Shown here one piece after another: positions 1 through 63,896 of a stretch of DNA of 64,000 bases. The stretch lies in sequence record MH517022.1. The stretch is one strand, 5' to 3'. The translations under genes and the position numbers were made by a program. The notes below the pieces were generated by a model. The model was not told the DNA's origin, ran no database searches, and worked only from the letters and a program-made list of their open reading frames with translations. The stretch is from Acinetobacter phage SH-Ab 15599. The stretch's first letter is position 1; each line of letters begins with the position of its first letter.

Positions 1-109
<109 letters not shown>

Positions 110-396
110 CGCAAGGAGTATCAAACCTGCAGGGACTTCGGAGAAGTAGAACAAATTGTGCGGCAAAGCATTTTGTTCATTTAGAGTTCTGTTAGGCTCT
201 AAATCTTCTCAGAACAACAATAACACTCTTAACCAAAATGCTATTGCCTAACGCTCATGAATACTAATATAATGAGTTCAGTATAAAAAGTCTAATTGGA
301 AAAACCGTTCCTAATAATTTATTTTTCCAATGCTGATATTTTTACTGTAACTATTGGATAACATTAAAATAAATTAAATTATTTTTATTTTACCCC

Positions 397-425
397 TTTA
401 CTTCAGAATTGAACTACATTATAAC
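397..425 (+). promoter_or_regulatory. Sigma70-like early promoter (TTTACT-N17-TATAAC) pointing into the ORF-free region
   Basis: tttact at 397-402, 17-nt spacer, tataac at 420-425. Same architecture as seven other promoters in the window. Confidence 0.5.
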
Positions 426-1058
426 TATCGGGCTGGTGCGTCTTTAACCATGTTTGACAAATCCAGTCCGTATGCGGCAACTGATGAAGAATCAGTACAG
501 TATACTGAATCGAAACAGGAAAGTGAAACCTGTTTGTCACGCTCTCCATCTTATGATGCGCAGTGTGATTGGCGCCAAAATTGAATCGAGCCAGATTATA
601 GGAGACACTTGATACAAAGCTTCTTATTGAAGTGATTTCATTGGTACATCTAGGTCTATAGACCCAATCATCAAATCCAATGATCTTATTGTACTTGTGA
701 CTGTGGAACGTTATGAAACCTATTTGATTGATAATATCTTAGAAATCTGTTTCAAGTTGATCATTTAGTTATTCCTTGGCGTTTAAAAATAATGAAGGAA
801 TAAGGTAGCGTTTATTGAATGTTTATTTCAATAAGGGTTCCGACAGATTGAGTTGTTTTCATTCTGTTGGTTGAGGGCTTCTCAATCTAAGATGACAGAT
901 GAAGTTGATTTTGAAACCTAAGAAATTTCAGATTCAAATTAATCTTGAGAGAGCTAACCGTAAGGTTAAAAGAATTGAGTATCAGCATTTCCAGATTGGA
1001 GATGTCCAATTAACAGATTGGGGCTGTTTAAGTTTTGATTCTCTTGTAAATTACAGAT

Positions 1059-1085
1059 ATCAGATTAATTTCTGATTTATTTTTA
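1059..1085 (+). terminator. Rho-independent terminator-like hairpin (atcaga-ttaatt-tctgat plus T run)
   Basis: 6-bp stem with a 6-nt loop followed by ttattttta. Confidence 0.4.
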
Positions 1086-1169
1086 AATGTAATAACGAGA
1101 GATATTGAATGATGAAACGGTTTGAGAAAAATGGGGAGGTATACCCGTAATTCACACCCCCAGGGGTCA

Positions 1170-1191
1170 ATGCGAGGGCGAAGCCCGAGTA
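1170..1191 (+). repeat. Left copy of the atgcgagggcgaagcccgagta motif (inverted copy at 63897-63918)
   Basis: 22-nt match with one mismatch to the reverse complement of 63897-63918. Confidence 0.7.
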
Positions 1192-1386
1192 TTGACACAT
1201 CGCGAGAAGAAAAAGAAAGCAAAGTAAAAACTACCCTGAAAATCAATCTGCTAAATAATAGTGAAGGGTAGAACGTAGTGAAGATCAATAAACTCACTGC
1301 TGAAATCTATTAAAAATGTAAATAAAGAGTGTTGTTTTTAATTCACTACGTTTTACCCTGTCTCCTCCAATACAATAATAAGTGTT

Positions 1387-1405
1387 CCACACGGTAGGCT
1401 GAGAG
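1387..1405 (+). repeat. ccacacggtaggctgagag motif, copy 1
   Basis: Identical 19-mer at 20383-20401. Near-identical at 35414-35431. Inverted variant at 63851-63869. Confidence 0.8.
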
Positions 1406-1617
1406 TCAAAAATAACACCCAAACTCTACTGTAAATTACAAGCCATAAAAACCCAAAATTAAGATATTATTGTTCATGAACAAAGTGCCCTAATAAAAAT
1501 ACAGAATTGATTTCTGACGTCTTGTTTTTCTTCCCTTATGATAGATTCCACTAAGATATATTCAGCCTTTATATTTCACGATAAAGGGTTATAATTGTTT
1601 CACTCGGAGAAAGACAG

Positions 1618-3485: not shown

Positions 3486-3920
3486 ATGACAGAAGCAAAT
3501 CAACAAGCGCCGAAGAAGTACGGGATGTTTGATGTATTGAATAATATCAACAGCACTAAAGACCGTTCTTTGATGAATGAGCATACATATCGTGCAGCTT
3601 GTTCGCCGTTCTCTATAAACAGAGCTTTGATGCAGAACCCTAGAACAATTATGATTGCCCATGTTGCTAATCGCAATTGTCTTATTGATCCAGAAATGTA
3701 TCATGAGTATATGGTTTCAGCAATTCCAAAAAATAATTCCCGCGTGAAATGGAAAAAACGCGAAGATAAATCTGAACATTTACCTCTTATTATGGGTTAT
3801 TACAAGGTAAATGAGAAAGTTGCTTTGGATTATTTGAAAATCTTGACTAATGATCAAATTAAGGTTATAATTAAGAAAACTGAACGAGGCGGCAGAGTAG
3901 GTCGTGGAAAAAATGAATAG
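3486..3920 (+). CDS. 62: Clamp loader small subunit (gp62-like)
   Basis: YMVSAIPKNNSRVKW matches the T4 gp62 block YLMAAVPRGKRYGKW. Position follows gene 44. Start chosen at the ATG preceded by gagg. Confidence 0.6.
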   Translation: MTEANQQAPKKYGMFDVLNNINSTKDRSLMNEHTYRAACSPFSINRALMQNPRTIMIAHVANRNCLIDPEMYHEYMVSAIPKNNSRVKWKKREDKSEHLPLIMGYYKVNEKVALDYLKILTNDQIKVIIKKTERGGRVGRGKNE

Positions 3921-4389
3921 CTTGTCACAAATTTTAACAAAACTTCCGTTGGGCGAATCGATTCTTGATTACTGTATCGAGATCACTCCTGTAGTTGCAG
4001 CTGACGGGCGTTTCAACTCTTTCAATTCAATTCGAGAGACATTGAAGCGTATTGGGGTTGTATCTAAATCTGACGACAAAGTATTGACCCAATCTTGCCA
4101 TATCTTCTTACACAACGGCAAATATTACATCATGCATTTTATGATGATGTTTATGTTTAATGGTTCTCCTTCAAAAATTACTTTGCGGGATATCAAGCGT
4201 ACTGTAATCGTAGCCAAATTACTTCAGAAATGGGGTTTGGCTACGATTAAGAATCTAGATGTCATTGACGTTGAAACGACTGATAATGAATTAGAAGGTT
4301 TACGCGTTATCAAATATAAAGACGCCAACCAATGGTATTTCAAAAGTCTTTATAAGATGAAAAAGGAAACGCCGAATGGAAATGTATGA
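3913..4389 (+). CDS. regA: RegA translational repressor homolog
   Basis: DKVLTQSCHIFLHNGKYYIMHF matches T4 RegA DKVLYQSCHILQKKGLYYIVHF. The order 45-44-62-regA is conserved with T4. Confidence 0.65.
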   Translation: MNSLSQILTKLPLGESILDYCIEITPVVAADGRFNSFNSIRETLKRIGVVSKSDDKVLTQSCHIFLHNGKYYIMHFMMMFMFNGSPSKITLRDIKRTVIVAKLLQKWGLATIKNLDVIDVETTDNELEGLRVIKYKDANQWYFKSLYKMKKETPNGNV

Positions 4390-5251
4390 TCTAACGCTAC
4401 CCCGTTGGTTGAACTATTGTAAAGCAATGGTTGAAGTGAAAGATGTTGATCCAGTATATGACGGTTTGACAGGCGCGAAAGAAGAAATTGGACATGAACA
4501 ACTCTGTAACTTCTTAGTCTCATTCTCATTGTTTTATTCAATGGAAGAAAGTTGTAAAATTGTCTCAAATAAAATTCCAACTGTATTGATGTGGGATTTT
4601 ATGATTGAACATTACAAATATATGAAGCGCGGTAAAGCTAGACGATATTTCCGTGGCCAGGCTGGTTTGGATTGTCTTCATTATTTGAAAACTCATTTTG
4701 TAAGCCCTGTTCAATTCGTAGAATTAATGTATGCCCCTGACTATAAGGGTATCATGAGAAATTTTGAACCAGTACCTGCTTTCGGGGGTTATCACACTTG
4801 GAAGTGGTTAGATTTCTATGAACGCGTATTAGGTAAACCAGTTGAGCTTGATTATGAGTTGGGTGCAAAGGTTCTTCCGTCTGAACCAACCAAAGGCGCA
4901 AGACTCGTTCATTTAGAAATGTGTCCTCACAAACCGTTTGATTTAGAATCTATTCTGCGTTACATGGTTAATGAATGTAGAGAGCTTGGGCTCAAAGCTC
5001 CTCCATATGACGGGCGTTTAGTCGGTATTCAAGAAATTGAAACTATGCTTTGTGGTATTGTTCACATGTATAAAGGTAAGCATGTTGATTATATCGGTAA
5101 AGATGTAGCAGAGAAATATCTTGATGTTGAACGCATTGGGGAAGCTGATAATGATTGGTTATTGAAACATATGCCTCAGCCTATGTCGAAAGAACTAACA
5201 TTCACCGATCCATATTTCAATAATACTTTTTCTTTAATGGATATTTTATAA
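4376..5251 (+). CDS. Hypothetical protein, 291 aa
   Basis: Long ORF with an RBS (aagga) 8 nt upstream of the ATG. No recognisable motif. Confidence 0.5.
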   Translation: MEMYDLTLPRWLNYCKAMVEVKDVDPVYDGLTGAKEEIGHEQLCNFLVSFSLFYSMEESCKIVSNKIPTVLMWDFMIEHYKYMKRGKARRYFRGQAGLDCLHYLKTHFVSPVQFVELMYAPDYKGIMRNFEPVPAFGGYHTWKWLDFYERVLGKPVELDYELGAKVLPSEPTKGARLVHLEMCPHKPFDLESILRYMVNECRELGLKAPPYDGRLVGIQEIETMLCGIVHMYKGKHVDYIGKDVAEKYLDVERIGEADNDWLLKHMPQPMSKELTFTDPYFNNTFSLMDIL

Positions 5252-5313
5252 CCCATTAAAACAATAGCTTAACAAGGGAAGTAAAATATTTTTAAAAATA
5301 TTTTGAAAACCAC

Positions 5314-5342
5314 TTTACTTCCTACGTTAAAAAGTTAATAAT
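5314..5342 (+). promoter_or_regulatory. Early promoter ccacTTTACT-N17-aataat
   Basis: Matches the recurring promoter architecture. Followed by a leader containing ctcatcggagta before the ATG at 5419. Confidence 0.5.
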
Positions 5343-5418
5343 AGCTTTCATACAGGCTGAGATTGAAAATAAAGAAAATCTAGTCTGAACTTTACTAACA
5401 CTCATCGGAGTATCAGAA

Positions 5419-6099
5419 ATGACTACAGTTACAATCAAAAACGTACAAACTAACGCTTCTGTTGAAATCAATGTTGAAGATGTAAAATTAGCGGCTAAAC
5501 AATTACGTGAAGCAGGTCACTCTATCACTGCAGCTACAATCAACCGTATCTTGGAAACTGAAAAATCATCTGCTGGTTGGACAATCATCAAAGATGGTAA
5601 ACAATTCCCTTGGTCTGAGCGTGATGTTAAAAAATTCAAAATTACTGAAGAAGTTCAACCTACATTTGAGAACCTTTCTCATATCGTTGCAGAACAAGCT
5701 CCTGAAGTTGTTACTGAAGCAGTAGCAGAAGTGGCAGAACAAATTATCGAAGCTGAATATAGCAATGACCCAGACGATTTAACAGCTGATAATGTTAAAT
5801 GGTTAAAACGCAACGCGAAAGGTCCACAAGAGCTAGGCAAAGTGCGTAAAAACTCTAAAGTTTGGGAAATCATTGTATTACTCAAGAAAGAGCGTTTGAC
5901 TCTTAAACAAATCCAAGAAAAATTGTATGAAGTTGGTTTGGATGAAGATCAAATTGACGACTACAAAGTGACTCAAGCATTCTATGACGTAATGTGGAAA
6001 GGTTACAACATTGCTAAGATTGCGGTTGAAGGTGGAGAACCTGTATATGCTATCCGTCACCTTGACTTCACTAAAGTTACAGACATCCTTGTATATTAA
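5419..6099 (+). CDS. Hypothetical protein, 226 aa
   Basis: ORF with RBS ggag. An acidic central region. No recognised motif. Confidence 0.5.
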   Translation: MTTVTIKNVQTNASVEINVEDVKLAAKQLREAGHSITAATINRILETEKSSAGWTIIKDGKQFPWSERDVKKFKITEEVQPTFENLSHIVAEQAPEVVTEAVAEVAEQIIEAEYSNDPDDLTADNVKWLKRNAKGPQELGKVRKNSKVWEIIVLLKKERLTLKQIQEKLYEVGLDEDQIDDYKVTQAFYDVMWKGYNIAKIAVEGGEPVYAIRHLDFTKVTDILVY

Positions 6100-6108
6100 T
6101 AAATGAAA

Positions 6109-6131
6109 GGCGGGAATCCCCGCCTATTTCC
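6109..6131 (+). terminator. Rho-independent terminator (ggcggg-aatc-cccgcc plus tatttcc)
   Basis: GC-rich 6-bp hairpin followed by a T-rich tract. Confidence 0.6.
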
Positions 6132-6152
6132 ACAAATCAAGTGAGTATCAAC

Positions 6153-6500
6153 ATGTATACATTGACCCAACCTCAAATTGCTATGTTACTTGTAGCTGTT
6201 ATTGTTATTTGTTTCATCTTAATCGAGATCATGCGTCTCAAAGAAATGAAACAACAGAAGTTACGCGCTGAATATTTCGCATACCGCGCTCTTTTAGACT
6301 ACTTTGCTCCTTTCAACATTCGCATGATTGAAGTCTCGGAAGGGAAGTACAATTGCGTTCAGTTCTCAAAGAATGGAAAGCCAGTGTTTGATATTCTTTC
6401 TCATAAGGGTTCTGTAGTTTGTTCAAAGGTGGAAGACACTAAAAAGAAACAAGCGTTCAGTGCAACTCAATTAGCTGAAATGTATAAGGTTGAATTCTGA
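6153..6500 (+). CDS. Small membrane protein (N-terminal TM helix)
   Basis: Hydrophobic stretch IAMLLVAVIVICFILIEI near the N-terminus. Confidence 0.4.
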   Translation: MYTLTQPQIAMLLVAVIVICFILIEIMRLKEMKQQKLRAEYFAYRALLDYFAPFNIRMIEVSEGKYNCVQFSKNGKPVFDILSHKGSVVCSKVEDTKKKQAFSATQLAEMYKVEF

Positions 6501-6676
6501 TGCCAAATGTAAAATGCCCGCACTGCGATGAAGAAAACGATAGCGTTGACGTTTCTTTGAATGATGGATTCTGCGCGGAATGTGACAATGAGATCGAAGG
6601 GATCGAGTGTTACCAATGCGGTCATCTGAATATCAACGACGAAGCTAATTGCTCTCAATGCGATTATCCTTTATAA
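6500..6676 (+). CDS. 58-aa zinc-ribbon protein with four CxxC motifs (not in the ORF track because it is under 60 aa)
   Basis: Translated by eye as MPNVKCPHCDEENDSVDVSLNDGFCAECDNEIEGIECYQCGHLNINDEANCSQCDYPL. ATGA overlap with the upstream stop. Confidence 0.45.
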   Translation: MPNVKCPHCDEENDSVDVSLNDGFCAECDNEIEGIECYQCGHLNINDEANCSQCDYPL

Positions 6677-6702
6677 TCCCACAATTATTTTCTGATGCCC
6701 AC

Positions 6703-6731
6703 TTTACTTTCTAGTGATTTGGGCATATAAT
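6703..6731 (+). promoter_or_regulatory. Early promoter cccacTTTACT-N17-TATAAT
   Basis: Perfect -10, 17-nt spacer. Leader tcgctcatcggagta sits 10 nt before the ATG at 6772. Confidence 0.55.
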
Positions 6732-6771
6732 TACTTCACTAAATTCATTATCGCTCATCGGAGTAATTAAA

Positions 6772-7821
6772 ATGACAATCCACGCCTTTATCAATTCTGC
6801 TTTATATCGCAATTCTGAAATCTCTGGTCAATATGTTGTTTTTGGTAAAGAACCAAAGGACAAGGAATGTAAACGAGACTTTTATTTGAAATTGCGTCAT
6901 CCAGATACTGGTAAAGAGTTTGGCGTTCACATTTATGCTAAAGATGTCATTTTTAAAGATGAGAATGCCAACATTGTACATTTAGCTAATGGGCGAGTGA
7001 AGTCTTCCTCAGCTTCTGATTCTCAACCATCAACTGTTGTAACTCAAGAACCTGAGTTGACGGATGAAGAGTTGGATCGTATCATTTACAAACGTTTTCA
7101 AATTATGAGCCAATTGAGCGATTCTCTCATTCTAGGTCATACCAAAGCGTTGATTATTTCAGGAGCTCCTGGTATCTCTAAAACATTCACTCTTGAACAA
7201 AAATTGGATGATGCTTTGGAGTCTGGAGTAATTGAATCATTTGAACATCTCAAGGGGCGTGTTACACCTCTTCAGTTGTTTGTGAAACTTTATGAAAATA
7301 AAGACCCAGGCCACATTCTTTTGATTGATGACGTTAATCTATGGGGAGAAGAGAACTCAATTGAATTATTGAAGGCAGCTCTTGATACGGGTTCAAAACG
7401 TAGTGTAACTTGGGCGTCAACCGCGTCTTGGTTAAAGGAACAGAAGATACCAGAATCATTTGAATATGAAGGTTCTGTTTGTTTTATCACAAACGTTGAT
7501 TTTGACCGAGCAATAGCTCGCAATACATCTGCATCTGTTCACTTGAAAGCTCTTATCTCAAGAGCAAACTATCTTGATTTGAAAGTACACTCAAACAAAG
7601 AGATTCTTATCAGAGTGAAACAAATTGTGCGCGACTCATCTATTCTACAGTCAAATGGATTGTCTGAGGCGGACGGTAAAGAAATGTTACAATGGATGGA
7701 AGATAACATCGAGAAACTACGCGAGTTGTCTCTCCGCACGGTATTGAAGATAGCATCGTATATGAATACAAACCGTACAGATTGGACTGAAATTGCCGAA
7801 GTAATGCTGTTGAAAAAGTAA
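6772..7821 (+). CDS. AAA+ or P-loop ATPase
   Basis: Walker A motif GAPGISKT and Walker B motif ILLIDD. N-terminal roughly 110 aa of unknown function. Confidence 0.6.
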   Translation: MTIHAFINSALYRNSEISGQYVVFGKEPKDKECKRDFYLKLRHPDTGKEFGVHIYAKDVIFKDENANIVHLANGRVKSSSASDSQPSTVVTQEPELTDEELDRIIYKRFQIMSQLSDSLILGHTKALIISGAPGISKTFTLEQKLDDALESGVIESFEHLKGRVTPLQLFVKLYENKDPGHILLIDDVNLWGEENSIELLKAALDTGSKRSVTWASTASWLKEQKIPESFEYEGSVCFITNVDFDRAIARNTSASVHLKALISRANYLDLKVHSNKEILIRVKQIVRDSSILQSNGLSEADGKEMLQWMEDNIEKLRELSLRTVLKIASYMNTNRTDWTEIAEVMLLKK

Positions 7822-7884
7822 TAAACTGTAATATGAGGGTATAATATACCCTCTCTAATCAATATCTCCTAATGAGGAATTAAA

Positions 7885-8577
7885 ATGCATACATTTTGTA
7901 AGAACCGCAACGAACAACCAAAAACAACTGCAGTGTCATCTGTAATGAGCGGTTTGTTTGAATTTTGTGAAGCTATGGACAGCCGTAACCCTCCATCTGA
8001 GTTCATTATCAAAGACCGCAATATTGAATTGTTTCATTACAATGCGAAAATTGGTGTTACCAGAACAGCTGCTACTCAACATGAAGAAATTAAGGGAGAT
8101 GTTTTCACTACAACAGACCAATTGATTATTCACGGTACAAACTGTCTAGGGGTAATGGGGGCTGGGTTCGCTAATGTAGTAAAATATCGTTATCCAGATG
8201 TATATGATGAATATCAATTACATTGTCGCAAGAACATGTCTTTTGTTATTTTGGGTACAGTTCAATTTGTGAAATCTGAATGCATGGACAAGAAGATAAT
8301 TGGCAATGTCTTTACTCAAGAGAGTGTAGCAGGTCGAGTTGCTGGTCGCCCTTTCAAGTACAGAGCATTCATGTTAGCTATGGCAGATGTAGTGAAATAT
8401 TGCAAAGCAAATGGTCTCACTTCTTTTTCAATGCCTCGTATTGGATCTGATCTAGGGGGAGGAGACTGGGAGGTCATTAAACATATCCTTTGGTTCATGT
8501 TCCATAATACAGGGATTAAACCAAATGTATATGTTCTAGAGCGCCCTGCATTTGGTATGTTCAAAGGGGATAAATGA
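7885..8577 (+). CDS. Macro-domain protein (ADP-ribose binding or processing)
   Basis: IIHGTNCLGVMGAGFANVV matches the macro signature (VNAAN...GGGGV..AI). A second glycine-rich block FSMPRIGSDLGGGDWEV is present. True start probably at an internal Met. Confidence 0.6.
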   Translation: MHTFCKNRNEQPKTTAVSSVMSGLFEFCEAMDSRNPPSEFIIKDRNIELFHYNAKIGVTRTAATQHEEIKGDVFTTTDQLIIHGTNCLGVMGAGFANVVKYRYPDVYDEYQLHCRKNMSFVILGTVQFVKSECMDKKIIGNVFTQESVAGRVAGRPFKYRAFMLAMADVVKYCKANGLTSFSMPRIGSDLGGGDWEVIKHILWFMFHNTGIKPNVYVLERPAFGMFKGDK

Positions 8578-8924
8578 TGAACGCTGGATTCTATATGATG
8601 TGTCCATCTTTCCCTATGGTTCAGAGTATTGTACCCGAAGACTTTGCTATCGATAGCCAAATCTCTTACGGGATGCTATATGTAAGACAATACAACGGCG
8701 CTAAAATCAGCATGTTCCGGAAGAAAGATACAACCAGAGGTCAATGCGTCTCTGGAGTGAACGTTGATCTTTTCTTCGGGGAAGTGACCTACAACTGGGC
8801 TTTGAAAGATGTAAATGGACATACATATATCAACTCTGGTGAAAAACATAAGACTGATATTAATCTGAAGAATGTTTGGCTTTATGAAGATATAACCCAA
8901 TTACAACGAGACATTCTCAAATAA
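8574..8924 (+). CDS. Hypothetical protein, 116 aa
   Basis: ORF with ATGA overlap to the upstream gene. Confidence 0.4.
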   Translation: MMNAGFYMMCPSFPMVQSIVPEDFAIDSQISYGMLYVRQYNGAKISMFRKKDTTRGQCVSGVNVDLFFGEVTYNWALKDVNGHTYINSGEKHKTDINLKNVWLYEDITQLQRDILK

Positions 8925-8960
8925 AATTGGATAATTATTTCATTTAATGGTTGATATAAA

Positions 8961-9926
8961 ATGGAACAACGAAATATTGAACAAATTGATCATAAGAATG
9001 GAGTTAACAAAATTCTTGTCGGTTGGATCATCTTCTTCATTATTGAACGTCAGAAGATTTTGAAACGCAAACAAGCGGGACAGACTCCATATACTGAAGA
9101 TCCAATTTTCAATGAATATCGATTTTGTAATGTAGACCGCGAAGATGATCGAGTTACAACTTGGATCAGAGATAACATCCGCGTTCCATATGCTGATCAT
9201 AAAGACCTTTGGTTGATGTTAGCGCTTGCTCGTTGGATTAACTGGCCACCTACTCTTGCCGAATTAGTTGAAAGCAAATACTGGTTTGGCAAACCCGACT
9301 TCTCATTACAGGGTTTAGCCGACGTAATGCTAGAGCGTCAAAAACGGGGTGAAAAGATTTACACTGGGTCTTATATGATCCGAGCTGAATCAGACAAAAA
9401 TTCGCCATTTATAGACAAAACTAAACATGAGTTCGTTTGTCTGAAGGTAATCGGACAATTGGTAGAAGACCGAGAACGTATTGAGGCAGTTCTCAATAAA
9501 CCAGATTGCACACTTCAAGAGTTCAACCACTTGATAACAAGTTACGTCAATTGGGGCGGCTTCATGTCATATGAGCTCGTAACTGATCTGAATCATACTC
9601 GTTATCTTGAGAATGCTTCTGATCGTTACACTTGGTTGAATCCGGGCCCTGGGTTTGTACGCGGAGCCAACCGTCTTATGGGTTTACCTCTGAATGGTAA
9701 TCTCAGTGAAAAGGCTTCTAATGAATACGCTCTTCAAGTAATTGAGCATGCTCATAAGCTATACGATGAGGGTGTTATCCCAAATGACCTCATTGATAAA
9801 TCTCAAATTGATATGCGTTGTATTGAGTCTGCTCATTGTGAAATGGACAAATACCTACGCGTGTTAACTGGAGAAGGTAAACCGAGAGCGAAATTTCACT
9901 CTCATGAACAGTATTACAACATTTAA
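8961..9926 (+). CDS. Hypothetical protein, 321 aa (candidate DNA or nucleotide modification enzyme, inferred from context only)
   Basis: Large ORF immediately upstream of the TS-family gene. No motif recognised. Confidence 0.5.
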   Translation: MEQRNIEQIDHKNGVNKILVGWIIFFIIERQKILKRKQAGQTPYTEDPIFNEYRFCNVDREDDRVTTWIRDNIRVPYADHKDLWLMLALARWINWPPTLAELVESKYWFGKPDFSLQGLADVMLERQKRGEKIYTGSYMIRAESDKNSPFIDKTKHEFVCLKVIGQLVEDRERIEAVLNKPDCTLQEFNHLITSYVNWGGFMSYELVTDLNHTRYLENASDRYTWLNPGPGFVRGANRLMGLPLNGNLSEKASNEYALQVIEHAHKLYDEGVIPNDLIDKSQIDMRCIESAHCEMDKYLRVLTGEGKPRAKFHSHEQYYNI

Positions 9927-20328: not shown

Positions 20329-20401
20329 TCCATAAAAATTGCCCTGTTATTAACAGGGCTTTTTAGTGGTATTTTTAATGTTCCACACGGTAGGCTGAGA
20401 G
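20329..20401 (+). repeat. Composite intergenic element: tccataaaaattgc, terminator hairpin, spacer, ccacacggtaggctgagag
   Basis: Hairpin gccctgttattaacagggc plus T run at 20341-20365 (terminator for the ligase gene). Motif at 20383-20401. Same arrangement at 35359-35431 and, degenerate, at 51106-51180. Confidence 0.7.
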
Positions 20402-20461: not shown

Positions 20462-20490
20462 TTTACTTAAAACTTGAAAAGCGCTATTAT
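20462..20490 (+). promoter_or_regulatory. Early promoter ccaCTTTACT-N17-TATTAT
   Basis: Leader tcgctcaacggagta 10 nt before the ATG at 20529. Confidence 0.55.
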
Positions 20491-20528
20491 ATCTCTATCA
20501 AATATATTATCGCTCAACGGAGTAGACC

Positions 20529-20831
20529 ATGATTTCACTAGATACATTTCAAGCTCAAGTTCTTTTATCAATCGCACGTTGTTCTGATGTGAACAAGAAG
20601 GGCATAAGAATGGATGACCTTGCGTCTAAAGAAGACATTGAAACTAAAGACTATGGCTCTGCCCGCGTTGCTAAGATGGTTGGTTGTAATTATACCGTTT
20701 TAACTGAAACAATCAATTTTCTTCAACAAGAAGGATATATCAACTCAGTTGAACGCAGAAATGGAAAAGTCCTTATGATGTTTACTGATAAAGGCTACAA
20801 AATGATTAAAGAAATGGTAGCAGCAGCTTAA
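20529..20831 (+). CDS. Small putative winged-helix DNA-binding protein
   Basis: 100 aa. Pattern resembles MarR-like or winged-helix proteins. Weak call. Confidence 0.4.
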   Translation: MISLDTFQAQVLLSIARCSDVNKKGIRMDDLASKEDIETKDYGSARVAKMVGCNYTVLTETINFLQQEGYINSVERRNGKVLMMFTDKGYKMIKEMVAAA

Positions 20832-20928
20832 ACAATAATCCCAAATACAATGGCGTCTAAATGGCGTCATTTTTATTGCTTCTCCATAAATATTCTCAGT
20901 ACAAGAATTTTAACATTGGAAGAAGCCC

Positions 20929-33694: not shown

Positions 33695-33755
33695 ACGCTT
33701 CATACAGAACAAACTGTATAGAATCTTACATAATATCACTCTTTGGAGTATCAAA

Positions 33756-34127
33756 ATGCTTTTAACAATGGATAACATTTCTAATTTTGTATCTGAAAAT
33801 TCAGAAGTTATGAACCTTCAATCTGTCTTAGAAACATTAGGATTCCGTGGCGCAGGTAACCAAGTTGCTTTTGGTATACTTTCTAAACGAGTTATTTTTG
33901 GCGCTCAATTTTTAAAAATGATGGGCGTTAACCCGAGTAAAGCAAAATCTTTAAACCCTCAATTCAAGTTTGTTGAATGTGAATATATTGAAGAGCCACT
34001 AGATTTCTCTCAATTCCAACCTGTTGGTCGTATGGAGTCAAGCTTTACAGTATATGATATTAGCAAACTGGGTGATGTATTTGTATTGCGGGCGCAGAAC
34101 GGTTGTAAAGCAATAGTAACAATGTAA
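33756..34127 (+). CDS. Hypothetical protein, 123 aa
   Basis: ORF behind a promoter plus RBS, ended by a bidirectional terminator. Confidence 0.45.
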   Translation: MLLTMDNISNFVSENSEVMNLQSVLETLGFRGAGNQVAFGILSKRVIFGAQFLKMMGVNPSKAKSLNPQFKFVECEYIEEPLDFSQFQPVGRMESSFTVYDISKLGDVFVLRAQNGCKAIVTM

Positions 34128-34159
34128 TAAAAAGCCCCTCAGGTGAGGGGCTTTTCTTT
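34126..34159. terminator. Bidirectional terminator at the convergence point of the two arms (gcccctc-aggt-gaggggc)
   Basis: A-tract upstream and a T-tract downstream. A nearly identical hairpin occurs at 40188-40205. Confidence 0.75.
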
Positions 34160-34781: not shown

Positions 34782-34814
34782 TAATTCTCTCAATAACGCT
34801 CAACGGAGCTTGAT

Positions 34815-35358: not shown

Positions 35359-35431
35359 TTCCATAAAAATTGCTCTGATATATACAGAGCAATTTGACTG
35401 TATTTTATATGTCCCACACGGTAGGCTGAGA
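35359..35431 (+). repeat. Composite element copy 2 (tccataaaaattgc, hairpin gctctgatatatacagagc, cccacacggtaggctgaga)
   Basis: Same order and orientation on the plus strand as the copy at 20329-20401, although the flanking genes here are on the minus strand. Confidence 0.7.
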
Positions 35432-35436
35432 CATAG

Positions 35437-39761: not shown

Positions 39762-39810
39762 ATATCTGTACCAACAACGGTACGTTTGCTAACTCTCAAC
39801 GGAGATTATA

Positions 39811-41394: not shown

Positions 41395-41423
41395 TTTACT
41401 TTTCATGAATCATCCATTATAAT
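41395..41423 (+). promoter_or_regulatory. Early promoter TTTACT-N17-TATAAT upstream of the HU-like gene
   Basis: Perfect -10. Leader ends acttttggagaaatgac before the ATG. Confidence 0.55.
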
Positions 41424-41490: not shown

Positions 41491-41766
41491 ATGAACCGTA
41501 CTGACTTAATCGCTGCTGTAGCAAAAGAAACTGGTAACACTCAAGCTGTTGTTGAAGCTGTAATTAAAGCATCTGAAGGTAAAATTGCTGAAGCCCTAAT
41601 TGCTGGCGAAAACGTACAACTTGTTGGCTTTGGTACTTTTAAATCAACGCCTAAAGAAGCAACAACTGCTCGTAACCCTAAAACTGGCGAAGAAGTGGCA
41701 GTTGCAGCTACAAACCGCGTTACATTCAGCGTTTCAGATGCTCTGAAAGAACGTTTGAAAAAATAA
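41491..41766 (+). CDS. HU or IHF-family (DNABII) DNA-binding protein
   Basis: MNRTDLIAAVAKETG...GENVQLVGFGTFKSTPKEATTARNPKTGEEVAVAATNRVTF is the canonical HU signature (GFGTF, R.ARNP.TGE). Confidence 0.8.
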   Translation: MNRTDLIAAVAKETGNTQAVVEAVIKASEGKIAEALIAGENVQLVGFGTFKSTPKEATTARNPKTGEEVAVAATNRVTFSVSDALKERLKK

Positions 41767-53067: not shown

Positions 53068-54462
53068 TCAAACTTTCACAGATTCAATATCGGCAGCTAA
53101 AAGGAACTCTGGCGTTTTCTTTTCCAATTCATTGTATTCAGATTGAGCCTTTTGAAGTAACTTTTGAACTCTCTCAATACGTTCATCAGTTAATGCTAAA
53201 ATGTCTGATTCTAAGAATCGTTTAATGAGAGCATCATTATCAACAATATTTCTCAGCTCTGATTCAATTTCTGGACGCTTCTTTTTCAACAGTTCTGGAT
53301 TTGCTAACCAGAATTTAATATACTTGATGAGAGATTCATACCAGTGTACGTGATACTCTAACAACTCAAGCTTGTAATTCTTACGCACTTGAATCCACCA
53401 AAGGCGTTCTTCAATCCAATATTTCAATAGATCAGTAGCAGAATCAAAAGACTTGATACAGTTGTCAAAACCCCATACATTGATATTTTCAGTAAATGAG
53501 CTGTTCAATTTGAAGATGGAATGCAACTTATCAATTGTTTGTTTACCAAATTCTCTGCTGTGACGTATAATGATTTTCCAATTGCCTTCTGTAGATTCAT
53601 CATCAAATGATACAATCTTCTTGGAAGTTAACAAAGGTAATAATACGCGCTGTTTGTACTTCTCATATTGGAACGGCGAGAACGGAGGCAAGTCTGTAAT
53701 TGTAGTTGTAGTCTGATTGTTACGTTCAATGACACCAGTAATGATAAATTGTTTTGGGTCTTTAGCTTGAACAACCGTACCTTTGAAACCATTGAAACTT
53801 GGAATCATGAATTTTTCAGGTATCTCTTTTTCAGGAGATGTGAGATAGGCAGCAATTGCCTTTTTAATGTTAAGAATGTTTCGAGGTAAAATGTTGGACG
53901 AATAGCCAAACCCAATACCGAATCCACCGTTAATAAGAATTAAGGGCAATTTAGGAAGGAAAAAGTCTGGCTCGATCTCATCCCCGTCTGTTTCTTTATA
54001 ATTGATAATGGACAGGTCATCTTCATCAAACATTTCATCAATGGCTGTAGTACGTCGTACAAAAATGTAACGACCATCAGTTGCTCTGTTATCAATAGCT
54101 GTACCAAACTGACCTTCTTTTTGTAATAATGGATAGTTATTAGCTCCAGCAAAATCTTGAGCCAACCCGATTACAGACTCAATAAGAGAGCTTTCCCCGT
54201 GTTGATAATGCGTCTTGCTTGAGGTAAATGAAGCAAGGTTGTTAACCTTAACACTTTCTCCCTCTTTGATTTCTTTCATTACGGTGTAGATGACCTTGCG
54301 CTGAGACATCTTCAAACCATCTACAGCAGACGGGATAGAACGTTCATTATCATATTGAACGTATGGTTTAAAATCATTTTCAATGAATTCATTAATTGGA
54401 ACTATTTGAACGTCAAACATGTTTCTGGTACTCTGAAATGAAATAGGGATATCATAAGACAT
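53068..54462 (-). CDS. 52: Topoisomerase II medium subunit (gp52, GyrA-like)
   Basis: IPSAVDGLKMSQRKV and NNYPLLQKEGQFGTAIDNRATDGRYIFVR align with T4 gp52 (IPNMIDGFKPVQRFV, NNFPLLDGQGNFGSRTVQKAAASRYIFAR). Confidence 0.85.
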   Translation of the reverse strand: MSYDIPISFQSTRNMFDVQIVPINEFIENDFKPYVQYDNERSIPSAVDGLKMSQRKVIYTVMKEIKEGESVKVNNLASFTSSKTHYQHGESSLIESVIGLAQDFAGANNYPLLQKEGQFGTAIDNRATDGRYIFVRRTTAIDEMFDEDDLSIINYKETDGDEIEPDFFLPKLPLILINGGFGIGFGYSSNILPRNILNIKKAIAAYLTSPEKEIPEKFMIPSFNGFKGTVVQAKDPKQFIITGVIERNNQTTTTITDLPPFSPFQYEKYKQRVLLPLLTSKKIVSFDDESTEGNWKIIIRHSREFGKQTIDKLHSIFKLNSSFTENINVWGFDNCIKSFDSATDLLKYWIEERLWWIQVRKNYKLELLEYHVHWYESLIKYIKFWLANPELLKKKRPEIESELRNIVDNDALIKRFLESDILALTDERIERVQKLLQKAQSEYNELEKKTPEFLLAADIESVKV

Positions 54463-56494: not shown

Positions 56495-56593
56495 TTTGAT
56501 ACTCCAATGAGCGATAGTAATTAAAAACCCTTAGATGGGTTACATCTAAGGGCTATTATAATGAACATTTTGTTCTGGTTTTAAAATCAAGTT

Positions 56594-63850: not shown

Positions 63851-63869
63851 CTCTCAGCCTACCCTGTGG
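63851..63869 (-). repeat. Inverted variant of the ccacacggtaggctgagag motif (ccacagggtaggctgagag on the minus strand)
   Basis: The reverse complement of 63845-63875 reads cgccacagggtaggctgagagacaaaaataaca, compared with tccacacggtaggctgagagtcaaaaataaca at 1386-1417. Confidence 0.7.
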
Positions 63870-63896
63870 CGAGAGTCATTTTGCTGTACTCGGTAA

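Follow-up and report, generated by a model that had tools for sequence, protein, structure and literature searches.

What is the promoter-and-leader unit at positions 5314 to 5418 of Acinetobacter phage SH-Ab 15599, and why do units like it recur along the same DNA? The stretch analyzed here is 64,000 nucleotides long, roughly half of the phage genome (sequence record MH517022.1; hereafter, the window). An original prediction had described within it a family of at least eight early promoters feeding leaders with a conserved box around the Shine-Dalgarno (SD) sequence GGAG, and had proposed a common post-transcriptional control. The observation of a promoter and box family is confirmed by our analysis. 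Region 5314-5418 is best explained as one copy of a repeated early-gene expression cassette, in which a sigma-70-type promoter is followed by a short leader whose SD lies in a 19-nucleotide box that could form a small hairpin.

A near-identical match for the window is absent among GenBank phages (megablast of positions 5000-9000 returned nothing). One close relative was found and no other, Acinetobacter phage nACB2 (136,560 bp; record OQ032512.1, assigned to Ackermannviridae), which is collinear with the window at ~70% DNA identity; two well-conserved proteins that we compared are 61-72% identical. The complete nACB2 genome served as an independent test set for both promoter and box. Of the 17 box copies counted below, 7 are from the window, both strands included, and 10 are from nACB2.

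A promoter class and a box at ribosome sites

All eight promoter sites of the original list are confirmed, with TTTACTT, 16 bases, and a -10-like hexamer at every position. They are intergenic, lie on the plus strand, and have a 17-nucleotide spacer after TTTACT and a -10 matching the consensus at five or six of its six bases. The pattern first given, TTTACT-N17-TATAAT, is exact only at 6703 and 41395 (two found in the window versus 0.09 expected), the other six promoters having one mismatch in the -10. Among the 46 TTTACT hexamers on both strands of the window, a -10 with at least five of six matches at a distance of 16-18 nucleotides follows 9 of the 20 intergenic copies versus none of the 26 inside genes. 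These nine sites are the eight listed promoters and a ninth at 341, in tandem with 397, and all are intergenic and on the plus strand. The 26 nucleotides upstream of the eight promoters are 69-100% A+T, versus 62% for the window. Promoters of this form number 13-14 in nACB2, where nine combine a perfect TATAAT with a 17-nucleotide spacer and the ortholog of the promoter at 5314 (P5314) has the identical -10, AATAAT. A generic sigma-70 scan is uninformative (88 matches versus 62 expected in shuffles), and the weight therefore falls on the specific TTTACTT class. Computation establishes a family of sigma-70-type promoters.

A CCAC extension upstream of the -35 had also been reported as conserved, and a possible UP-like or factor-binding role had been suggested for it. 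CCAC is present at four of the eight sites, and only the C adjoining TTTACT is near-invariant (seven of eight window sites and all sites in nACB2 and in a 165-kb uncultivated viral genome [UViG] described below). As a separate element CCAC is weakly supported; it amounts to one near-invariant C at the -35 together with A/T-rich upstream DNA.

T4 early promoters favor a -35 of the TTTAC type. The promoters described here resemble them in a near-consensus -10, a 17-bp spacer, A/T-rich upstream DNA, and extra conserved positions at the -35 (Hinton 2010, PMC2988021), the T4 class being built from UP, -35, TGn, and -10 elements (PMC2988021). They differ from them in the absence of a TGn extended -10 at all eight listed promoters, in the form of the -35 (C-TTTACTT), and in the presumed host, Acinetobacter. 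Their likeness to promoters of the host type and to the early promoters of T4 (PMC2988021) leads us to infer that the class is active early, probably immediately early, in infection.

The second component, the box, was found as CTCNNNGGAG seven times in the window (3.1 expected from shuffles) and ten times in nACB2. The six leader boxes reported originally are present (5401, 6754, 20513, 33739, 34799, and 39795), and a seventh that had been missed lies at 56502-56511 on the minus strand. Every window copy stands upstream of the ATG of a real open reading frame (ORF). The distance from box to ATG is 6-8 nucleotides in the window (7/7) and 7-9 nucleotides in nACB2 (10/10), and none of the copies in these 200 kb lies away from a ribosome site. 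Indeed, CTC stands at the box offset at 7 of the 32 GGAG ribosome sites of the window versus 0 of its 252 other GGAGs (Fisher 1.2e-7), and at 10 of 68 ribosome sites versus 0 of 397 other GGAGs in nACB2 (Fisher 2.5e-9). The box is thus far more frequent upstream of starts than elsewhere. The bias is limited to a 3-nucleotide gap, with other gaps and other trinucleotides behaving like background.

Weight-matrix scores separate members cleanly. Members in the window score at least 20.7 bits and everything else at most 11.6 bits, and overall the distribution is bimodal (members at least 18.5 bits, the rest at most 12.1 bits), with one decayed nACB2 copy as the single exception. That box-like copy, CGCTCAACGTAGTAC at nACB2 61822 (-), has GTAG in place of GGAG and no start codon after it, and lies near a 1.2-kb region of nACB2 that has no annotation. 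At 19 nucleotides, with the consensus wTAWCR-CTC-AWYG-GAG-TA, the conserved box is longer than first reported. Its placement 9-10 nucleotides before the ATG had been misjudged, since the end of GGAGTA is 4-6 nucleotides from the ATG. The "reduced form" said to precede uvsY does not belong to the family; it scores below 8 bits, lacks CUC, and is an ordinary GGAG site.

The box lies 17-58 nucleotides downstream of a TTTACTT promoter in 10 of 10 nACB2 copies and 6 of 7 window copies, always at the first cistron. The distance from -10 to box varies over this range and the distance from GGAG to ATG stays at 6-9 nucleotides, indicating that the box is part of the ribosome-binding region and not of the promoter. 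Its anchoring to the ATG fits control at the RNA level. In the reverse direction, six of the eight listed promoters feed box leaders, as had been proposed for the family, and those at 397 and 41395 do not. The nACB2 ortholog of promoter 41395, which precedes an HU-like gene, likewise has no box, and neither do the first promoter of nACB2 and its 61679 promoter. Upstream of the seventh window box we find TATAATA (56560-56554) and a terminator-like hairpin (56554-56526) and no TTTACT promoter; the nACB2 ortholog of this gene has a normal TTTACTT promoter. Computation thus establishes a 19-nucleotide, SD-centered box at first cistrons behind promoters of this class.

A predicted hairpin around the Shine-Dalgarno sequence

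The bases flanking CUC...GAG can pair in all 17 sites (AU in nine, GU in five, UA in two, and GC in one). The predicted hairpin has a 4-bp stem (N-CUC with GAG-N') and a 4-nucleotide loop whose last base is the first G of GGAG, and it pairs three of the four SD bases. Complete pairing at the flanking position (100% of cells) was equaled in 2 of 500 shuffles, and slid registers are 28-53% paired. RNAalifold independently predicts the same helix, and each 16-mer folds to the same hairpin at -1.4 to -3.8 kcal/mol. The outer pair also varies in a compensated way: at one syntenic position a double change gives U-A in the window (39795) and A-U in nACB2 (36251), and one ortholog pair has G.U versus A-U (nACB2 103034 versus IMG/VR locus L005). 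A conserved potential 4-bp hairpin is therefore established by computation. The family reading of the original prediction stands, and the hairpin nature of its box had gone unnoticed there, as had the cassette behavior described below.

The window and nACB2 together have 83 further GGAG ribosome sites. Box sites are less structured overall than these (mean minimum free energy -4.45 versus -7.26 kcal/mol, p 5e-5), yet their SD is more often paired (probability that it is unpaired 0.24 versus 0.41, p 0.006). In these models the box is an isolated small predicted hairpin within an otherwise open leader. The loop never varies in length, its first base is A in 20 of 21 sites and its third a pyrimidine in all 21, and TAWC is conserved upstream, which is conservation beyond what an SD-masking stem needs. 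This excess, together with the occurrence of ACTCAAC in a distant phage that lacks the stem, suggests that a macromolecule reads the sequence of the box.

The distant phage is the 165-kb UViG (IMGVR_UViG_3300046457_000084; loci L092, L097, L098, and L099), whose capsid protein is 56% identical. It came from a capsid search that returned six loci, only one clade of which, that of this UViG, has promoters of the TTTACTT type. It carries at least eight copies of ccacTTTACTT-N16-TATAAT, each followed by a near-identical leader of ~40 nucleotides, TTCATTGGTAGCGAAACTCAACTGAAAGGAA...ATG. In the leader cTTCATTGGTAGCGAAACTCAACTGAAAGGAA...ATG, ACTCAAC stands just upstream of the SD and is common to the window box; the SD is AAGGA and has no GAG partner. 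No consistent SD hairpin is predicted in these leaders, and the leader family has no match in GenBank phages. The leaders of this UViG are a separate conserved-leader family.

As a ribosome-site element the box is confined to the small clade of the window and nACB2. A scan for the promoter-plus-box pattern returned three nACB2-like fragments from IMG/VR and one from metagenomes, where the other 82 matches are due to chance; all 16 matches in bacterial and archaeal genomes are likewise chance. With few nACB2-like fragments and the remainder chance, the covariation test could not be enlarged. A protein-based search with the gene at 5419 found no relatives. Rfam gave nothing for the box at gathering score, its sole snoRNA match (E ~1) being chance; a full-text literature search for CTCAACGGAG retrieved unrelated primers only, and the nACB2 paper does not mention the motif. 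We thus found no literature or Rfam record of the box. Control phages carry motif copies (5 in 50 kb of Kuttervirus BSP101, 9 in 40 kb of Aeromonas phage AhFM11, and 1 in 46 kb of T4), which lie in coding sequence and terminators with no bias to ribosome sites.

A motif common to T4-type phages or to the host genus was considered and rejected: nACB2 aside, the leader consensus finds its best matches in T4-type Aeromonas phages, where only the 3' half ACGGAGTAAATCAAATG agrees and CUC is missing. The T4-type AhFM11 (locus L118, 19990-20025) has repeated ribosome sites, ATCACGGAGTAAATCAAATG, that are almost identical to the 3' half of the nACB2 box leader but have no CUC, and the match we examined comes after a stem-loop between genes (TAGGACCAT...ATGGTCCTA), an arrangement like that of the PeSL-type units described below. 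The GGAGTAAATCAAATG spacer may serve as a strong ribosome site that is common in myoviruses unrelated to one another.

Within the window and nACB2, dinucleotide shuffles lead us to expect ~10 box copies in total at random positions of the 200 kb. Synonymous-codon shuffles of the 250 called genes give 3.4 sense and 1.9 antisense copies; zero are observed on either strand, with probabilities of 0.027 (sense) and 0.17 (antisense), and both counts are zero in 0.3% of shuffles. This depletion is a weak hint that the box is harmful outside ribosome sites.

Cassette behavior and candidate readers of the box

Genes behind the box are mostly ORFans and are less well conserved than the promoter and box in front of them. 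Comparison of the seven box-driven proteins with nACB2 shows two that are well kept (61% and 72% identity), two that are barely so (25% and 35%; the 25% match is the gene at 20529), and two without a homolog (those that start at 33756 and 34815). Where nACB2 is syntenic with the 39811 gene, it has the same promoter-box unit, with an A-U outer pair, before an unrelated ORF. Pairwise alignment of orthologous leaders shows three conserved elements and no more, namely, the -35, the -10, and the box. Terminator-like hairpins lie upstream of the promoters at 20462 and 33666 and downstream of the genes at 20529, 33756, 34815, and 39811.

Units of this kind are known from T4-type phages as promoter-early stem-loop (PeSL) cassettes (Arbiol et al. 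2010, PMC2839356; Comeau et al. 2014, PMC4122927). A PeSL joins A/T-rich DNA to a sigma-70 promoter, a stem-loop, and the SD and ATG, sits ahead of ORFans, and mediates modular exchange (PMC2839356, PMC4122927); its conserved ~100 bp, which include the SD, support recombination (PMC2839356). The units described here are likewise repeated and intergenic, ~100 bp long, and made up of A/T-rich DNA, a presumably strong sigma-70-type promoter, and an SD with its ATG, some of them with a terminator; they precede ORFans, outlast flanking genes, and have had their cargo replaced at syntenic positions. PeSL-like cassette behavior is thus established by computation. The differences are that the present phage is not T4-type, belonging to a clade of Acinetobacter phages classified under Ackermannviridae; that the stem-loop is not fixed in every unit, being found upstream of the promoters at 20462 and 33666 and within the leader of the 56511 box and undetected at 5314, 6703, and 39733; and that a mini-hairpin in which the SD is embedded is undescribed for PeSLs.

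What the box does is less certain than that it exists. With confidence somewhat short of even, we favor the reading that it is a shared translational operator for immediate-early genes, read by a putative factor. At the DNA level, the A/T-rich upstream region, C-TTTACTT -35, 17-bp spacer, and TAtAaT -10 would form a strong host sigma-70 promoter. At the RNA level, the leader is short and, outside the box, predicted to be weakly structured, with the SD inside the box wTAWCR-CUC-AWYG-GAG-UA. A free hairpin as weak as that predicted (-1.4 to -3.8 kcal/mol) would be opened by ribosomes, and the immediate-early genes would be translated at once. Later, a sequence-specific factor, most likely phage encoded, would bind or cut the box and block 30S binding, and the whole immediate-early set would be shut off together. 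More specifically, and more doubtfully, the box may be the recognition site of a new early shut-off system in this Acinetobacter phage clade, parallel to T4 RegB and RegA. A phage RNA-binding protein or endoribonuclease unrelated to RegB would then read the SD tetraloop hairpin and TAWC; all immediate-early mRNAs would be silenced at once, and the motif would be avoided elsewhere for that reason.

Several points weigh against an operator. The label "early" rests solely on likeness to sigma-70 promoters; one box (56511) has no TTTACT promoter, and two or three promoters have no box. Three of the four stem pairs are invariant, and the covariation comes down to one pair and three sequences; the sites are partly duplicates of each other, and the shuffle test overstates their independence. 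Hairpin and sequence are each a possible recognized feature, ACTCAAC in the 165-kb phage lying outside any SD hairpin. The depletion outside ribosome sites is marginally significant and on the sense strand only. Finally, the candidates examined yielded no trans-acting factor: of the seven proteins behind a box, not one is basic or has a match to a known family of RNA-binding proteins or nucleases.

A ribosome site that works by its own design, with no dedicated factor, is a possible alternative, although we would not bet on it. The weak hairpin would set the translation level or protect the SD behind very strong promoters, and the uniformity of the box would reflect copying of the cassette by recombination or gene conversion, in the manner of PeSLs, rather than recognition by a protein. 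The cassette does outlast its cargo and is attached to ORFans and terminators, as PeSLs are (PMC2839356); some nACB2 leaders are near-identical over ~45 nucleotides; the hairpin lowers predicted SD accessibility; and no candidate factor was found. However, simple masking of the SD would tolerate other loop lengths and sequences, and the leader around the box has diverged from nACB2 with insertions and deletions while the box, the loop letters, and TAWC were kept. The retention of ACTCAAC in a distant phage without the stem and the absence of the box elsewhere in 200 kb also speak against such a design. A site acting in the DNA is highly improbable. Here an ACTC-N4-GAGT palindrome would bind a DNA-binding protein (e.g., the 100-amino-acid winged-helix protein) or serve cassette recombination, and 12 of 17 sites are indeed perfect 4+4 inverted repeats, one box gene encodes a winged-helix-like protein, and exchange of the PeSL type needs conserved DNA (PMC2839356). 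Yet 5 of the 17 sites have G...T, which pairs in RNA and makes no DNA palindrome, and the box has one orientation to the gene, a fixed distance of 6-9 nucleotides to the ATG, and a variable distance to the promoter; these features point to RNA rather than to a palindrome in DNA. A specificity of eight base pairs would also be small for a dimeric operator.

Two specific factors had been named as candidates for the common post-transcriptional control, a RegB-like endoribonuclease cutting at GGAG and the RegA homolog encoded in the window. The promoter family, the SD box, and the fit to control in RNA survive from that proposal, whereas both of these routes are weakened. The RegA homolog is indeed present (tblastn E 5e-12 and 37% identity to T4 RegA; Pfam PF01818 at 78.2 bits, cutoff 25), its T18 and R21 of the RNA-binding helix are conserved, and nACB2 also encodes a RegA-family protein. 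As in the T4/RB69 RegA system, a multigene regulon of ribosome sites coexists with a RegA protein; known RegA sites lie at or just 5' of the AUG, with a specificity that varies between phages (PMC3014915), and UAA follows GGAG at 9 of 17 box sites, UAA repeats being what RB69 RegA selects (PMC3014915). Even so, an operator through which this homolog represses translation of the box genes is unlikely. Known RegA operators are unstructured and A/U-rich (T4 AAAAUUGUUAUGUAA and RB69 UAA repeats; PMC3014915), whereas the conserved core here is a predicted, G/C-containing CUC/GAG hairpin and only the spacer is A/U-rich. The regulon differs as well: T4 RegA acts on 44, 45, regA, and rIIB, and the present box is on ORFan early genes instead, being absent at the ribosome sites of the genes at 1618 (gp45 position), 2400 (clamp-loader ortholog), and 3913 (regA), so that clamp and clamp-loader genes, which are T4 RegA targets, have no box. 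RegA is, moreover, widespread in T4-like and Ackermannviridae phages (including locus L094), whereas the box is confined to a small clade. The RegA homolog is the only identifiable candidate factor, and it is a poor fit to known RegA operators.

Cleavage within GGAG by a RegB-like enzyme, which would inactivate immediate-early mRNAs as in T4, is also unlikely. The resemblance is that GGAG SDs of early genes carry extra conserved context, implying class-specific post-transcriptional control; they stand in ribosome sites behind early promoters, as T4 RegB sites do (PMC1702504, PMC3014915), the 3' spacer is A-rich, and no box lies away from a ribosome site, which is what one would expect if cleavage there were harmful. 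However, sequence searches found no RegB homolog in the window or in complete nACB2 (tblastn with T4 RegB, best E 3.5). The T4 RegB/S1 site is a single-stranded stretch of 11 nucleotides, GGAGRAYARAA, for which nothing on the 5' side is required (Durand et al. 2006, PMC1702504), and RNA in secondary structure is protected from RegB (PMC1702504, PMC3014915). RegB context is thus 3' of GGA, A-rich, and single-stranded, whereas the context of the box is 5' of it (CUCAWY) and the GGAG is predicted to be paired; the base after GGAG (position 5) is U in 18 of 21 box sites.

Three further candidates were considered and rejected. In an extended pairing of the box with the 3' end of 16S rRNA, only GGAG pairs, with CCUC of the anti-SD sequence, and the flanking C and U mismatch on inspection. 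An antisense small RNA has no complementary "anti-box" copy in the window or nACB2. For a CsrA-type site (A-N-GGA in a loop), the register and closing pairs do not fit the consensus.

An operator read by a putative factor has parallels in other phages. The MS2 coat-protein operator is a hairpin translational operator bound by a phage protein. The operator hairpin of T4/RB69 gp43 has the loop UAAC, with CAAC as a variant obtained by SELEX (PMC3014915). Like both, the box is a small (predicted) hairpin with conserved loop letters at or next to a ribosome site. Its stem shows compensation at the one variable pair, and its flank, AAUAAC...CUCAAC, superficially resembles the gp43 loop AAUAACUC. Those two operators are single-copy and autoregulatory, whereas the box stands at 7-10 genes per genome. 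Unlike the gp43 operator, it is absent from DNA polymerase genes, and its 4-bp stem includes the SD itself.

Individual sites, neighboring elements, and significance

Table 1. Positions of promoters, boxes, and related elements in the window
Feature	Position	Strand	Sequence features	Gene or surroundings	Score or support
Promoter P5314	5314..5342	+	ccac-TTTACTT, 17-nucleotide spacer, AATAAT	Upstream 26 nucleotides 96% A+T	
Promoter P6703	6703..6731	+	ccac-TTTACTT-N16-TATAAT		
Promoter P20462	20462..20490	+	-10 TATTAT	Terminator-like hairpin 20341-20359 upstream	
Promoter P33666	33666..33694	+	-10 TATTAT	Hairpin GCCCCGCAAGGGGC upstream	
Promoter P34753	34753..34781	+	-10 TATATT		
Promoter P39733	39733..39761	+	-10 TATACT		
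Promoter 397	397..425	+	TTTACTT-N16-TATAAC	No box; points into ~1.2 kb without a convincing ORF	
Promoter 41395	41395..41423	+	-10 TATAAT	No box; drives HU-like DNA-binding protein gene 41491-41766	
Box	5395..5413	+	CTAACA-CTCATCGGAG-TAT; hairpin A5400-CUC / GAG-U5411, loop AUCG	ATG 5419, 226-amino-acid ORFan, ortholog of nACB2_006	-2.8 kcal/mol, 26.9 bits
Box	6748..6766	+	TTATCG-CTCATCGGAG-TAA; outer pair G.U	ATG 6772 (NrdC.10-like, 349 amino acids)	
Box	20507..20525	+	TTATCG-CTCAACGGAG-TAG	ATG 20529 (100-amino-acid winged-helix-like protein)	
Terminator-like hairpin	20849-20871			After gene 20529	
Box	33733..33751	+	ATATCA-CTCTTTGGAG-TAT	ATG 33756 (123-amino-acid ORFan, no nACB2 homolog)	
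Terminator-like hairpin	34130-34155			Downstream of gene 33756	
Box	34793..34811	+	ATAACG-CTCAACGGAG-CTT; outer pair G-C	ATG 34815 (110-amino-acid ORFan)	-3.8 kcal/mol
Box	39789..39807	+	CTAACT-CTCAACGGAG-ATT; outer pair U-A	ATG 39811 (123-amino-acid ORFan)	
Box (seventh)	56499..56517	-	CTATCG-CTCATTGGAG-TAT	ATG 56494 (248 amino acids, ortholog of nACB2_068)	23.8 bits
RegA-family translational repressor homolog	3913..4389	+		158 amino acids; candidate trans-acting factor only	Pfam, tblastn
TATAATA class	7840, 14907, 24484	+	TATAATA		
TATAATA class	37550, 48609, 51047/51070, 56560, 59488, 63754	-	TATAATA		
Intergenic repeat	1385-1405, 20381-20401, 35412-35432	+	TTCCACACGGTAGGCTGAGAG		
Intergenic repeat	63851-63871	-	TTCCACACGGTAGGCTGAGAG		

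The leader of the 248-amino-acid box gene carries its terminator-like hairpin and a U-run between promoter and box (56526-56554, -), and nACB2 has a hairpin of different sequence at the same leader position (54110-54140, -). This hairpin may be a conserved attenuator. A second promoter-like class in the window consists of TATAATA without a -35. Sixteen of its 24 copies are intergenic, and many stand in the right orientation 24-62 nucleotides upstream of genes, among them uvsY and those for DNA polymerase and structural proteins. The class probably comprises middle or late promoters; a late sigma factor resembling gp55 is encoded by nACB2. A 21-nucleotide intergenic repeat, TTCCACACGGTAGGCTGAGAG, occurs in four copies with 0-3 mismatches (0 expected), two of them ~20 nucleotides after terminator hairpins, and a related sequence, GGGTTCCAGACGGTAGGTTGGAAC, lies upstream of two nACB2 early promoters.

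The first ~1.6 kb of the window (1-1617), into which the promoters at 341 and 397 lead, has no convincing ORF and no nucleotide similarity to nACB2; in nACB2, too, a TTTACTT promoter (at position 2) is followed by DNA without annotation, ~1.1 kb of it. The window segment could be a genome end or a non-coding early transcript. The ribosome site at its end, CACTCGGAGAA at 1600-1617 (+), is not a member of the box family because its CUC directly abuts GGAG without a loop. The gene behind it (ATG 1618, 230 amino acids) follows a TATAAT at 1590-1595, and from its position we infer a sliding clamp (gp45), T4 gp45 having no significant tblastn match. The 291-amino-acid protein encoded at 4376-5251 (+) falls just short of the Pfam cutoff for ADDT, an amino acid:DNA transferase (24.5 versus 26.2 bits), a hint that this DNA may carry hypermodified thymidine, as that of other Ackermannviridae does.

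How immediate-early genes are shut off after transcription is known in detail for T4 alone, through RegB/S1 and RegA. The box is a compact, sharply defined cis element in a distant and little-sampled myovirus clade that has a RegA homolog and in which a RegB homolog was not found. Used as a bait RNA or in a reporter, it would give a direct handle on whatever factor reads it. The box-promoter unit would define the immediate-early gene set of these phages without experiment, and it is a candidate for a strong, phage-timed expression module in Acinetobacter. The units also extend the idea of a mobile promoter and ribosome-site cassette, known from PeSLs, beyond the T4-type phages.

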